Shown one piece after another: positions 23,267-26,469 of a stretch of DNA of 38,884 bases. A program made the position numbers and the translations under genes. Numbering within the stretch: position 1 is the first letter of the stretch; each line of letters starts with the position of its first letter. The DNA comes from a virus, in the UHGV virus genome UHGV-0130462. One strand, written 5' to 3'. A model generated the notes under the pieces. That model was given only the letters and a program-made list of their open reading frames with translations. It was not told the DNA's origin and searched no databases.

Positions 23267-23291
23267 AAAAAGCCCCGCTATTGAGCGAGGC
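23267..23291 (-). terminator. rho-independent terminator overlapping the Rz stop codon
   Basis: Minus-strand RNA: GCCUCGC-UCAAUA-GCGGGGC followed by U5. Confidence 0.5.
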
Positions 23292-23733
23292 ATTCAGTGT
23301 TGATGTAATTCTGCAAATACAAAGTTTGCTGTTCGTTCTCGACTATCATTTCTCTGAGACGTAGATAATCTTGTTCAACTGCTTTGTTAAGTCTTGCGGT
23401 GGTTTCATTGCTTCCGCTTTCGGTGGAATTTTTGGTGACTGCTGGACACTCGGCTTTGATGTACACCCGCTTATTGCCAGAGCTAACAGCATCACGAAGA
23501 GTGTTGATTTCATTCTTTGCACTGGCTAACTCCTGAGTGTATTTAATATCGAGTTGATTTAGTCGAGTGATACGAGCTTGGTAGTCTTTGTTGATTTCGA
23601 CTTGTTGAGATAGTTGACTAGTTAATTCAGCATTTGAAGCTTTTAGCTTACCAATCCTGTTACCCTGCCACGTCATACCGACGCTCATCATCAAAATAAC
23701 GCCCACGGACACTATCGTTTCGCCTAGATTCAT
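23278..23733 (-). CDS. Rz: i-spanin (Rz-like)
   Basis: N-terminal TM segment then coiled-coil periplasmic domain; last gene of the lysis cassette; ATG 23733 overlaps the upstream stop (ATGA). Confidence 0.8.
   Translation of the reverse strand: MNLGETIVSVGVILMMSVGMTWQGNRIGKLKASNAELTSQLSQQVEINKDYQARITRLNQLDIKYTQELASAKNEINTLRDAVSSGNKRVYIKAECPAVTKNSTESGSNETTARLNKAVEQDYLRLREMIVENEQQTLYLQNYINTECLAQ
23346..23513 (-). CDS. Rz1: o-spanin (Rz1-like lipoprotein) embedded in the +1 frame of Rz
   Basis: MKSTLFVMLLALAISGC lipoprotein signal with lipobox, then a Pro-rich 38-aa mature region; fully nested within Rz. Confidence 0.75.
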   Translation of the reverse strand: MKSTLFVMLLALAISGCTSKPSVQQSPKIPPKAEAMKPPQDLTKQLNKIIYVSEK

Positions 23734-24146
23734 AACAACAACCATGCATCTTCAAATACTTTTGGGCTGTAAGGCTGATAACCCAGCTCAACACCAACAA
23801 TCGCTGTGCCCAATGCAATCATAACTTCTTTTTTGTTGACTGATACACAATCTTCCGTACTTACATTCAATTCTTTAGCGACTCGATGAATGTATCCCTC
23901 AGTATTATTTTCTTTGGGCGGAGCATAGCGATTGATGATTTCACGGATAGAACATAACCCGTATTTCTTTTCGTAGGTTCGCATCAATACATAGATTGCT
24001 CGTATACCATATTCAGGTGATACGAATTGGCAAAAGTCTTTATCGGTTTGCTGTGCAGATAGTCCTTGCCATTTTGAACCGTGTCGAATATTACCAGGGT
24101 TGTTGTTTCTTTCCCCGCGTGCTGGTCTAGTCATCTTTAACTCCAA
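23730..24146 (-). CDS. putative endolysin (assigned by position between holin and spanins)
   Basis: Overlaps the holin stop and Rz start; family not recognised from sequence alone. Confidence 0.5.
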   Translation of the reverse strand: MELKMTRPARGERNNNPGNIRHGSKWQGLSAQQTDKDFCQFVSPEYGIRAIYVLMRTYEKKYGLCSIREIINRYAPPKENNTEGYIHRVAKELNVSTEDCVSVNKKEVMIALGTAIVGVELGYQPYSPKVFEDAWLLL

Positions 24147-24483
24147 ACTTAGCCTTTACTATTTTGACCGCACCCTCAAAAAGTGCGTATAGTTTCTTTG
24201 TCCCTAAGAATCCAATTACAACACCACAGAATTCCGCCAATAATGCCCACGAACTAGCATCACCACTACGTGATAGCCACCAATCAATAAACCGAATAGT
24301 TCCAACACTAAGCAAGCCACACATAACAGCCTCACCTAAAGAACGCTTCCATTGAGAACCAGCCTGTCTTTCTCTGATGTATGCAATTGTTGTAGCAATA
24401 GTAAATCCACCTAAGAGTGGGAGGACCGATTGTAACCAGCGTAAAATCTGCTCCCATTCGAATTTTTCTGGCATACGTTTCAT
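24127..24483 (-). CDS. class I holin, lambda S-like, with dual-start motif
   Basis: MKRMPEK... N-terminus and AYIRERQ...MCGLL...IRFIDWWL parallel lambda S; two in-frame ATGs separated by Lys-Arg (24483 and 24474); GGAGG upstream. Confidence 0.85.
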   Translation of the reverse strand: MKRMPEKFEWEQILRWLQSVLPLLGGFTIATTIAYIRERQAGSQWKRSLGEAVMCGLLSVGTIRFIDWWLSRSGDASSWALLAEFCGVVIGFLGTKKLYALFEGAVKIVKAKFGVKDD

Positions 24484-24583
24484 ACCCACCTCCCCATAGG
24501 AGGAATTTAGTTAATAGAACGCCGACTCACAGCTCTTGTGTGAACGTGAGGTGTTGTGATTGATTCTGTGGTCGGCATATACG

Positions 24584-24607
24584 AAAAAGCCCCACTAAAA
24601 GTGAGGC
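24584..24607 (-). terminator. rho-independent terminator between the KilA-N gene and the holin
   Basis: Minus-strand RNA: GCCUCAC-UUUUA-GUGGGGC followed by U5. Confidence 0.5.
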
Positions 24608-24627
24608 TTGCTATAAGTGATTCATAA

Positions 24628-25395
24628 TTACTCTGGGGCTGGTAAGGCTAATATTATATCATTCAGATGAGGTAATGCTTCTTTATCTTTACCCTTAAAG
24701 TAAGTTATTGATTTATTCTTTATCCAGTTGTTAATTTCAAAATTAAACATTGTCATTAACTCATTTGGATAAAGCCTTGCCTTAACAACTGGTCTTCTTC
24801 CATCATCAAATTCATGCTCATAAACAGGAAATGAATCAGGATCATAACCTCTAGCCCTGAGAATATCGCTAAAGAATCTACCTAAAGATATGTCAGGCAT
24901 AAGTTTTTGTGGGAGCATATACCCTCTAGATTCTAATGGAGCTAATAACTTTAAAGTCATTTGATCCAGCATAGAAAAGTGAGTTGGCGGTATTTTTTCC
25001 CGATTAATTAAGTAACGCCTTACATGATATGGCATCGCTGATTGATGCTGTTTTGCACCAGACATCCAATCGAATACCCATTTTGAAACAAGAACAGCGA
25101 ACTTAGGTGAAGCCCATTGACCTAAGTTGATAGCTACCTGAGGATGAACCCAAGTGCCTTGCATTTGAGAAAAACCACCTCTAACTATTTGAATTAATTC
25201 CGATACCGGAATTCCGGTATCGCTCGATAATTCAGCAACAAATGCTTTTGTTGAGTTATTATCAAGGTAATGATTGAGCCTCTTCCCAGCAGCTTGACAC
25301 ATTGCAGTAGCATTTATGTATCCATCATGAGCTCTTTGTGAAATAACTACATTGTTTTCCTGCCTAGAAATTAATGGCAATTCTAATTGGTTCAT
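24628..25395 (-). CDS. KilA-N domain protein with a C-terminal domain of unknown function
   Basis: N-terminal region (...HDGYINATAMCQAAGKRLNHYL...TKAFVAEL...) fits the KilA-N pattern; AAGGAG 5 nt upstream of ATG 25395 (ORF track start 25410 is TTG). Confidence 0.7.
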   Translation of the reverse strand: MNQLELPLISRQENNVVISQRAHDGYINATAMCQAAGKRLNHYLDNNSTKAFVAELSSDTGIPVSELIQIVRGGFSQMQGTWVHPQVAINLGQWASPKFAVLVSKWVFDWMSGAKQHQSAMPYHVRRYLINREKIPPTHFSMLDQMTLKLLAPLESRGYMLPQKLMPDISLGRFFSDILRARGYDPDSFPVYEHEFDDGRRPVVKARLYPNELMTMFNFEINNWIKNKSITYFKGKDKEALPHLNDIILALPAPE

Positions 25396-25470
25396 TACAT
25401 CTCCTTGCAAAAATCCAAATTACATTTTATGACAAGAAGATATAAAGCTAAAGGCAAATTAATATATACG

Positions 25471-25492
25471 AAAAAAGACCGCCTAAGCGATC
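25471..25492 (-). terminator. second late-leader terminator
   Basis: Minus-strand RNA: GAUCGC-UUAG-GCGGUC followed by U6. Confidence 0.5.
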
Positions 25493-25587
25493 TTCTGAAT
25501 GAGTTGTTCGGAATAACCGAATATGTGAACTATCCGGAAATTCCGGAGAGTTGAACTTGTAACGATTGCTTACAGGTTGCAGATAAC

Positions 25588-25609
25588 AAAAAACCCCGCC
25601 GGAGCGAGG
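25588..25609 (-). terminator. tR'-like terminator of the late leader
   Basis: Minus-strand RNA: CCUCGC-UCCG-GCGGGG followed by U6, about 50-60 nt downstream of the candidate late promoter. Confidence 0.6.
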
Positions 25610-25660
25610 TCTTGAATTCTTTTAACGTTAACGAAATGGCAATAACCCATCGTTAGAACG

Positions 25661-25689
25661 ATATTTACACAGAAAGGTGCAAAAGTCAA
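25661..25689 (-). promoter_or_regulatory. candidate late promoter PR'
   Basis: Minus strand: TTGACT, 17-nt spacer, AAATAT; directly downstream of the Q-like gene. Confidence 0.4.
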
Positions 25690-25713: not shown

Positions 25714-26469
25714 TTAATTTGTTACCTTTTTTAGTATGTAATCTGCGTTACTTTCTCCTTTTTCACACTCAACCGCCAATGACTCATAAAATTTACTAAC
25801 TGAACGCTTCCATTGATCAATCGTAATCCCTAAATGAGACACAGCCTGAAAAGCCTTTGATGCAGGTATTCGCTCGTAACCACGACCAGAACAACGCTTA
25901 CAAGGCATACTGACAGCCTCACCGGTTAACCTTAGCGTTTCTTTGTCTATTGCCATACCACGCCCTTTACAGTCATTGCACGCACAAGAAACATAACCTT
26001 TACCGTTACACTTATCACAAGCGCATGACTCGGTGTCATCAATAATGCGAACTTCTTTACCAAAGACTTTTTTAACCTTAATCGCCTTTACCTTAAAACC
26101 TGATCCATTGCACTTTACGCACTCAATAACACTTGATGCCGATCTGCAATAATCTGCATAAGCGAATTTTGCGAGTATTTGCATTACCTTTCGCTTAACA
26201 TTCATATCGAGCTTGCGTAAGGCTGGAACCTTATCGCAATGATTCAATGCATGCCGAGTTAAAAGTTGTATCGCTTTCACTTTGTCATTCTGGCTTATCT
26301 CCATCTTTCCCGAGAACGCAGAAAAGCCGAATGACTCTTTACTCTGACACATACCAAAAGCGCCCATAACATCAGTACCGGTTAATCTATCTGGCGATGT
26401 TGAGCTAGGCGCATCTGATATTGATGTTGTTTTGGCGAAGTGATATTTAACAGCGCTTTCTAGGTTCAT
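25714..26469 (-). CDS. putative late-gene antiterminator (Q-like) with a DnaJ-type zinc finger
   Basis: Four CxxCxGxG repeats (CVKCNGSG, CDKCNGKG, CNDCKGRG, CKRCSGRG); sits between the nin genes and the late promoter/terminator; GGAGG upstream. Confidence 0.5.
   Translation of the reverse strand: MNLESAVKYHFAKTTSISDAPSSTSPDRLTGTDVMGAFGMCQSKESFGFSAFSGKMEISQNDKVKAIQLLTRHALNHCDKVPALRKLDMNVKRKVMQILAKFAYADYCRSASSVIECVKCNGSGFKVKAIKVKKVFGKEVRIIDDTESCACDKCNGKGYVSCACNDCKGRGMAIDKETLRLTGEAVSMPCKRCSGRGYERIPASKAFQAVSHLGITIDQWKRSVSKFYESLAVECEKGESNADYILKKVTN

Follow-up and report, generated by a model that had tools for sequence, protein, structure and literature searches.

On its minus strand, the region at 25471–25689 of UHGV virus genome UHGV-0130462 (38,884 nt, the whole of which is referred to here as the window) most probably forms the late-gene switch, of the Q-lambda type, of a P22-like lambdoid Proteus prophage; judged from the sequence, we give this reading a probability of roughly 0.85. 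The parts and mechanism of Q cassettes have been published (PMC9388147, PMC5001585, PMC7171158), and of the parts by which such a cassette is defined (PMC9388147), the window has a Q protein of family PF03589 and a predicted sigma-70 promoter, pause element, and intrinsic terminator, with co-oriented late genes; the Q-binding element is putative. An initial annotation had interpreted the region as a PR'-like promoter with a short leader and two tandem intrinsic terminators, in a layout expected for Q-dependent antitermination; the elements were confirmed and this interpretation is supported. The limits given in that annotation span exactly the distance from the -35 hexamer to the end of the U-tract of the second terminator.

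The promoter named in that annotation, TTGACT and AAATAT separated by 17 nt, is present on the minus strand exactly where it was placed (25689–25661). The -35 hexamer TTGACT (25684–25689, read directly from the sequence) is identical to that of lambda PR'. It is followed by the 17-nt spacer TTTGCACCTTTCTGTGT (25667–25683), the inferred Q-binding element, and by an extended -10 element, TGT-AAATAT (25661–25669), in which the TG lies at 25669–25668 and the hexamer at 25666–25661. This hexamer, whose second base is A and whose sixth is T, stands in the same register as the lambda hexamer TAAATT and agrees with TATAAT at only three of six positions, which explains its absence from a generic consensus promoter scan. 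The hexamers by themselves are not significant, since chance alone would supply the pattern 0.64 times in the window when up to one mismatch is allowed. Six nucleotides past the -10 element, again in the lambda register, begins the 12-mer AACGATGGGTTA (25654–25643, minus strand), an exact copy of lambda PR' from +1 to +12 whose expected number of exact matches in the window, calculated from sequence length, is about 0.005; the initial annotation had overlooked it. The 12-mer includes the putative sigma-dependent pause element (25646–25654, minus strand), assigned by its identity with lambda and consisting of the -10-like AACGAT (+1 to +6) and the discriminator-like GGG (+7 to +9). The composite of promoter and AACGATGGGTTA lies far beyond chance, and we regard the pause element as the strongest single piece of evidence for the predicted Q cassette. 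The predicted transcription start is the A at 25654.

Previous studies of the Q-lambda cassette have shown that sigma region 2 re-binds the -10-like element while region 1.2 binds the GGG discriminator, and that in lambda the polymerase pause falls at +16/+17 (PMC5001585, PMC9388147). The pause consensus G(-10) Y(-1) G(+1) fits less cleanly in the window than in lambda, with a T-G step at +14/+15 as against C-G at +16/+17 in lambda; a polymerase pause is therefore predicted at approximately +14 to +17, its exact position being uncertain. The comparison set consisted of 65 fetched loci encoding relatives of the window Q, together with lambda, Gifsy-2, and SPN3UB. In all 31 distinct variants of the promoter, which come from Escherichia, Salmonella, Proteus, Tatumella, and Pantoea, one common layout is retained despite sequence divergence: a TTGAC- or TTGAT-like -35, 16–17 nt, a -10 whose second base is A and whose sixth is T, 6–7 nt, and the motif NANNNT. 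The last of these occurs as AACGAT, AATGAT, AATGGT, CATGGT, or CATAGT, and in every variant except two, GGG directly follows it. A scan of the window revealed no other candidate late promoter ahead of the 20 kb of late genes.

The gene whose stop codon lies 24 nt upstream of the -35 hexamer (25714–26469, minus strand) encodes a 251-aa Q antiterminator of the Q-lambda family, bearing out its earlier description as Q-like. The protein belongs to PF03589 (E = 2.4e-34; family cut-off 26.7 bits), the sole antiterminator family matched in a Pfam search of the window, and aligns with PDB 7UBM in two segments, 1–112 and 162–250 (E = 2.4e-51); the solved Q-lambda structure 4MO1 is also matched. Homologs of NinG and of the lambda phosphatase precede it. 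Cassettes of the Q21 (PF06530) and Q82 (PF06323) types, which are defined by their Q family and by a pause element located farther downstream, were considered and rejected, because neither family was matched and the pause element lies at +1 to +6, as in lambda. The window Q is 39% identical to lambda Q and differs from it by a 49-residue insertion in the zinc-ribbon arm, which yields four CxxCxGxG motifs and two zinc sites. With this enlarged arm, the window Q may therefore contact DNA and sigma region 4 in other ways than lambda Q does.

Lambda Q binds between the -35 and -10 elements, with the helix-turn-helix (HTH) of the Q body at one end and the zinc-ribbon arm at the other (PMC9388147), and records of lambda-type phages label TATTGAATAAAATTGGGTAAA, within the promoter spacer, as the Qut site. 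In the window, we place the Q-binding element in the spacer (25683–25667), with the putative core CACCTTTCTG at 25679–25670 on the minus strand, because across genera the class of the spacer co-varies with the class of the Q recognition helix (aligned to the lambda helix PTWSRTVKPLY). Helices of the type DQWKR[SG]VS, found in Proteus and in Tatumella prophages of the L040 type (L numbers denote individual loci), accompany the spacer CAC[CT]TTT[CT]TG, which in both genera stands equally far from the pause element. Helices containing WRY, from Gifsy-2 and the L038-type Tatumella loci, accompany CGGAAA(A)TGG, and the Pantoea helix RTW[TE]RNW accompanies AAAATGGAT. The Tatumella Qs represent natural swaps: their N-termini and arms are nearly identical, their recognition helices differ, and so do their spacers. 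Among approximately 30 loci carrying the window-type Q, the spacer TTTGCACCTTTCTGTGT is nearly invariant; in L033, where Q is 69% identical and the flanks have diverged, the spacer differs from that of the window by a single C-to-T change.

Turning to termination, a hairpin with a U6 tract had been noted within about 60 nt of the promoter, and a terminator scan identified one whose stem starts 48 nt past the -10 element. This GC-rich hairpin, T1 (25588–25613, minus strand; stem 25613–25590, U6 25593–25588), is the putative equivalent of tR' and would end a leader of approximately 67 nt. Its fold of -15.1 kcal/mol was equaled by none of 200 shuffled sequences, and in 15 distinct variants its helix is 98% paired, with two compensatory pairs, compared with 39–61% in slid controls. 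The 3' flank of T1 is homologous to the flank that follows tR' in lambda (23/30 identical, P = 0.0005). The second terminator, which had been placed about 100 nt further on, was recovered by folding as T2 (25471–25496, minus strand; stem 25496–25473, U6 25476–25471); its U-run ends 117 nt beyond that of T1, and its fold of -12.6 kcal/mol (z = -4.1) was likewise unmatched in 200 shuffles. By a stricter criterion, the window contains eight strong terminators, as against 1.05 in shuffled sequence, and of the six on the minus strand, four (T1, T2, T3 at 24609, and T4 at 23291) fall within 2.4 kb downstream of the promoter.

The T2 sequence is present in all close relatives with downstream sequence except L019, and in nearly all close relatives carrying it, T2 scores as a terminator. 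In the T2 homolog of L019/L020/L033, a compensatory change has replaced A-U by G-C, and the tail, TTTTTCGTAT, is the same. T2 is retained both where nothing lies between it and T1 and where T1 has been replaced, and it forms a fixed, conserved module just upstream of the lysis cassette. Two strong terminators ahead of the lysis genes are the rule across the Q-lambda family, and the same geometry with tandem terminators was found in every locus of the family that we examined. T1 is not indispensable, since Brookers-type relatives have a broken T1 U-tract, leaving T2 as the sole strong terminator ahead of the lysis genes. Between T1 and T2, the window folds into a further hairpin, H, of 13 bp with an internal loop (25509–25545, minus strand). 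Hairpin H is partly deleted or absent in many relatives (L008, L011, L021, L022, L024, L030, L032, and L036); it was for this reason treated as dispensable and rejected as a functional part.

The leader that T1 would terminate begins with a predicted stem-loop (25630–25654, minus strand), identified by folding and covariation, in which AACGA (+1 to +5) pairs with UCGUU (+21 to +25), with an additional inner helix of 3 bp. Across the family, the 3' partner co-varies with the variant of the pause element. AACGA/UCGUU occurs in lambda, the HK97 type, Proteus, L076, and L085; AAUGA/UCAUU in L033; AAUGG/CCAUU in Tatumella; UGGUGG/CCACCA and UAGUG/CACUA in Pantoea; and AAGAAUG/CAUUCUU in L149, L155, and L168, where Q is identical to that of lambda. 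The stem is weak or exceptional in Gifsy-2, L037, L064, and L066. RNAalifold, applied to a MAFFT alignment of the leaders, recovered the 5' stem in a partly wrong register, and register-free statistics were therefore used: over all nine classes, the pairing is supported at P = 0.007 (Fisher's method), and a swap test gave P = 0.0002. A stem-loop starting at +1 is a classic mRNA-stabilizing arrangement. Folded in this way, the 5' stem-loop would sequester the RNA copy of the pause element; it may stabilize the leader and the late mRNA, and it may take part in events after Q loading. No description of a 5' stem in 6S RNA was found in the literature searched, which is no proof of novelty, and the co-varying stem-loop is possibly unreported.

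Comparison with lambda shows how far the lambdoid 6S-RNA/tR' layout proposed in the initial annotation applies. The promoter and tandem terminators of that layout stand, but the leader body is not homologous to 6S RNA and belongs to a short type resembling HK97 and Gifsy-2. Shared with lambda are the Q family, TTGACT, the 17-nt spacing, the 6-nt gap, AACGATGGGTTA, the 5' stem AACGA/UCGUU, a homologous post-terminator flank (TATCTGCA..CAAC..GTAAG), and a second terminator upstream of the lysis genes. The differences are considerable: the lambda leader (6S RNA) is 194 nt long, compared with approximately 67 nt in the window, and the body from +26 to T1 is unrelated; the spacer is TATTGAATAAAATTGGG in lambda and the T-rich GCACCTTTCTG in the window; the recognition helix is PTWSRTVKPLY in lambda and DQWKRSVSKFY in the window; the -10 is TAAATT in lambda and AAATAT with a TG extension in the window; and the window lacks the -35-like TTGACT that overlaps the lambda start site. 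A homolog of lambda 6S RNA was accordingly rejected as an identity for the leader, which is about 67 nt rather than about 194 nt long and resembles 6S RNA only from +1 to +25 and in the flank that follows the terminator.

Closer parallels are provided by the Salmonella phages Gifsy-2 and SPN3UB and by phages of the HK97/mEp235 type, in which, as in the window, a leader of 60–70 nt runs from a Q-lambda-type PR' to a GC-rich terminator, with a second terminator also present. The Gifsy-2 and SPN3UB leaders are approximately 79% identical to that of the window from the pause element through T1, whereas the Gifsy-2 Q is only 30% identical to the window Q and its promoter spacer is AATTAACGGAAAATGGC. 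The HK97 type has the lambda Q and Qut site, but its leader body and terminator differ from those of the window; by analogy, the window leader would correspond to the short HK97/mEp235 leader. StxS of Shiga-toxin phages and IsrK of Gifsy-1 resemble the window leader in being short terminated transcripts directly downstream of an antiterminator gene in lysogens, but neither shows a detectable sequence or Rfam relationship to it, and StxS differs further in that RNase E releases it, as a 74-nt product, from a 258-nt leader.

Relatives of the window indicate that these parts have been exchanged. The closest phage records are the Proteus phages vB_BPM-V3 and Brookers, both of which have Q annotated and the intergenic region left blank. 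Every module of locus L007 that was compared, from the promoter as far as the holin gene, is identical to its counterpart in the window. L019 and L020 carry the window promoter and the sequence from +1 to +24, followed by a body similar to lambda 6S RNA. Conversely, the exact leader and T1 of the window lie behind another promoter spacer in L071, L082, L084, L095, and L096, and in the two of these where the upstream gene is readable (L071 and L082), Q differs from that of the window. The same leader is attached to at least three types of Q and Q-binding site, and loci with Qs 99–100% identical to that of lambda have three different leader bodies. A scan with a 40-nt leader pattern proved too specific, returning mostly the same phages along with the informative loci of the second Q type and three coincidental matches inside a coding-like region (L073, L075, and L078). 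A wider family-alignment search of viral contigs returned solely loci with Qs 99–100% identical to lambda Q and was therefore uninformative on Q diversity. From the sharp mosaic joints, we infer that the stretch between the promoter and about +24 travels with Q, while T2, like the leader body plus T1, can be exchanged. The late cassette appears to be assembled from interchangeable units, one consisting of Q and its promoter up to about +24, another of the leader body and T1, and the last of T2 and the pre-lysis element.

Downstream of T2, the window contains an accessory insert (24577–25463, minus strand) comprising a KilA-N gene (Pfam KilA-N, E = 2.9e-26; ATG at 25395, stop at 24628) and its own terminator, T3 (stem 24609–24587, fold -13.9 kcal/mol), which shares its tail with T2. 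Copies of the 12-nt repeat TTTTTCGTATAT, at 25475–25464 and 24588–24577, bound the insert. In relatives, T2 directly abuts the pre-lysis element, or else a tRNA-Met or a small ORF lies between them. The intervals from T1 to T2 and from T2 to the pre-lysis element constitute two slots with variable inserts in relatives, among them reverse-orientation ORFs (182 aa; 210 + 61 aa) and small forward ORFs. Brookers has a tRNA-Met in its slot, and several other loci have inserts of matching size, 78–82 nt, at the same joint. In the window, the T1–T2 interval has its minimal form, holding hairpin H.

The pre-lysis element itself (24508–24576, minus strand) is conserved before at least four different lysis cassettes. 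Its long-range stem pairs GCCGACCACAG (24576–24566) with CTGTGAGTCGGC (24532–24521) and is followed by TATTAACTAA; the element folds at -19.9 kcal/mol (z = -4.0), and a consensus fold was also computed. Although the stem is conserved, no compensatory pairs were seen in an automatic alignment. The first late genes follow as a lysis cassette of holin, endolysin, and Rz (23272–24489, minus strand; Pfam and PHROG matches), after which the terminator scan and folding place T4 (23291–23272, minus strand) behind Rz. Altogether, the co-oriented lysis and virion genes beyond the promoter extend over about 20 kb. The genes met there on the minus strand are KilA-N, holin, endolysin, Rz, small and large terminase, portal, scaffold, and coat, with the head-closure protein, ejection protein, and tailspike among the further late genes; this gene set corresponds to a P22-like late operon.

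Together, these elements may form a switch that operates as follows. The promoter would fire constitutively, sigma-70 would re-bind AACGAT-GGG, and RNA polymerase would pause at about +14 to +17. Without Q, transcripts would stop at T1 as the leader of approximately 67 nt, and read-through, together with transcription arising from inserted accessory genes, would be halted at T2 and then at T3. Once the early operon supplies Q, the HTH of the protein would bind the -35/-10 spacer through the core CACCTTTCTG, and the spacer-bound Q would load onto the paused polymerase. The Q-modified enzyme would then ignore T1 to T4, allowing expression of the lysis and virion genes.

Several other readings of the region were weighed against this switch. 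It is highly improbable that the promoter match is coincidental and that T1 and T2 merely terminate an early operon ending with Q. The expectation of 0.64 for the hexamer pattern alone would permit such a coincidence, and operons commonly end in a terminator, but the exact lambda pause 12-mer in its exact register, the geometry kept across five genera despite divergence, the co-variation of the spacer with the Q recognition helix, and the lack of an alternative late promoter candidate before the 20 kb of late genes all argue for a late promoter. Attenuation by a leader peptide is scarcely credible. It would invoke a 26-codon ORF (ATGGGT...TAA) whose frame is open from an ATG at +5 through T1, with similar frames in the Gifsy-2, Tatumella, and Pantoea leaders and a weak match to the Rfam family Phe_leader (21.6 bits against a cut-off of 55). 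This ORF has no Shine-Dalgarno sequence, however; its ATG arises from the pause element and the adjoining GGG and shifts position between families, leaders of the CATAGT type have no ATG at all, and substitutions between Proteus and Gifsy-2 show no bias to synonymous changes. With the ATG explained as a by-product, lambda itself reading ATG GGT TAA, and no alternative anti-terminator fold predicted, this reading was rejected. A third proposal concerns T2, which, by a tentative reading to which we assign a minority chance, mainly insulates the insertion slots and keeps transcription born in the inserts off the lysis genes, rather than serving as a second tR'. T2 is not simply a duplicate of tR', because it bounds the slots for accessory genes. 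The variable inserts on either side of it in relatives, some in reverse orientation, agree with an insulating role, as do the provision of the KilA-N insert with its own T3, whose tail is that of T2, and the retention of T2 in L019 and L020, where a lambda-6S-like module replaces T1. Yet T2 is unchanged where the T1–T2 interval is empty (the window, L008, L011, L013, and L024), and in Brookers-type relatives it must act as tR', because the T1 U-tract is degenerate and no other strong terminator precedes the lysis genes. The two roles of T2 are in any case mutually compatible.

The leader may have a function beyond the Q-lambda-type switch, and here two related ideas of low probability bear on the evidence. 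It is doubtful, if conceivable, that the short leader does not merely arise as a by-product of the Q switch but is a conserved, horizontally mobile RNA module specifying a stable RNA of approximately 67 nt that acts in trans; that the transcript from PR' to T1 is a functional trans-acting sRNA in lysogens, alongside its role in the switch, we consider unlikely. The leader has the shape of an sRNA, in that its 5' stem-loop is joined by an A/U-rich linker, which includes AAGAAUU, to a terminator hairpin ending in U6. Its body is approximately 79% identical between Proteus phages and the Salmonella phages Gifsy-2 and SPN3UB, the Qs of which are 30% identical and the flanks unrelated, and the identical leader is joined to at least three types of Q and Q-binding site. 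There are also precedents for such a role, StxS (PMC7547250) and IsrK (PMC4825925). On the other hand, a search of the whole window against Rfam 15, which includes the prophage sRNAs isrK and isrJ, gave no match at gathering thresholds, and a permissive search of the window and its relatives yielded no family, only sub-threshold matches attributable to the terminator (istR, with 25 bits where the cut-off is 45; RsmY, with 20 where it is 57; and Phe_leader, at the score given above). Complementarity of the leader to its own downstream transcript, of the kind seen in IsrK-like pairing, did not exceed that of shuffled sequences (z no better than -1.35), and the islands of leader similarity are equally explained by recombination at conserved joints of mosaic phage genomes.

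The arrangement of Q, PR', pause element, and terminators thus corresponds to an already known kind of switch, of which the Proteus instance would be a new member; nothing on Proteus late promoters was found in the literature searched, which does not prove novelty. For a widespread group of Proteus prophages and phages, the analysis fixes the start of the late operon and confirms the assignment of Q, in records that annotate Q and include no promoter, pause site, or terminators. It also makes Q specificity testable, with three classes of recognition helix paired with three classes of spacer and the Tatumella prophages offering natural swap pairs. Finally, should the co-varying 5' stem-loop prove both real and previously unreported, a textbook system would gain a conserved RNA feature.

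The late leader, a predicted ~67-nt RNA running from +1 to the first intrinsic terminator, T1, begins with a 5'-terminal stem (25630–25654, minus strand) in which the transcribed pause-element bases, +1 to +5, pair with +21 to +25. This stem was noted in the window and in seven other loci (L003, L033, L045, L051, L065, L107, and L149). In six sub-families, the pairing strand on the 3' side changes in step with the variant of the pause element (P = 0.0002 by swap test, P = 0.007 by Fisher's method), with exceptions in the Salmonella phage Gifsy-2, L037, L064, and L066. No description of a 5'-terminal pause-element stem in a late leader was found in the searchable literature.

Mosaic joints fall within the late leader in L019 and L020 (~3275–3500), where the Proteus promoter plus positions +1 to +24 lead into a lambda-6S-like body, and in L071, L082, L084, L095, and L096. 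Loci of the L071 type carry an identical leader and T1 behind a different promoter spacer (TTGATC-TTTTGGCGGAGATGGGC-TATCGT); in L071 and L082, the loci with a readable upstream gene, the Q antiterminator is also different, with the helix TTWRRNFKPFY.

Turning to Q itself (gene 25714–26469, minus strand), comparison with lambda Q showed that 49 residues (~113–161) are inserted into the zinc-ribbon arm, as a result of which the window protein contains four DnaJ-like CxxCxGxG motifs. These motifs imply two zinc sites. A long arm is also seen in Gifsy-2, Pantoea, and L037; lambda Q and most Tatumella Qs possess a short arm.

In Proteus phage Brookers (L002, ~2640–2680) and in L035, the T1 hairpin is kept and its U-tract is broken (GGGGTCTTGTTGTAT), and the sole strong terminator before the lysis genes is the second one, T2, ~400 nt downstream. 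In the window, the T1–T2 interval contains a hairpin of 13 bp, interrupted by an internal loop (25509–25545, minus strand) and composed of the repeats TCCGGAAT, TTCCGGAT, and TTCGG..CCGAA. This element appears dispensable, as L008, L011, L021, L022, and L024 have lost its 3' half and the whole hairpin is missing from L030, L032, and L036. Separately, the T1 hairpin and tail matched twice in each of the 174-kb records of Campylobacter phages A18a and A11a (GenBank MG065686 and MG065691), over 34–35 nt at 97–100% identity; these matches could reflect chance, a terminator shared by the phages, or contamination.

Beyond T2, at 24577–25475 (minus strand), an insert comprising a KilA-N gene and a terminator of its own, T3, precedes the conserved pre-lysis element and is flanked by a 12-nt direct repeat, TTTTTCGTATAT (25475–25464 and 24588–24577). 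In relatives, this joint is empty or contains a small ORF or a 78–82-nt insert, which in Brookers is a tRNA-Met. The pre-lysis element itself (~70 nt; 24508–24576, minus strand) immediately precedes the lysis genes in at least four different cassettes and comprises a long-range stem of GCCGACCACAG with CTGTGAGTCGGC around a variable loop, followed by TATTAACTAA; in the divergent loci L020 and L033, coordinated single-base losses from the two arms of the stem keep the pairing. The holin start region (24472–24503, minus strand) encodes Met-Lys-Arg-Met, a dual-start motif whose ATGs lie at 24483 and 24474, and its Shine-Dalgarno sequence GGAGG (24493–24489) is sequestered in a hairpin with CCUCC (24503–24499), an arrangement reminiscent of the lambda S holin/antiholin start region.
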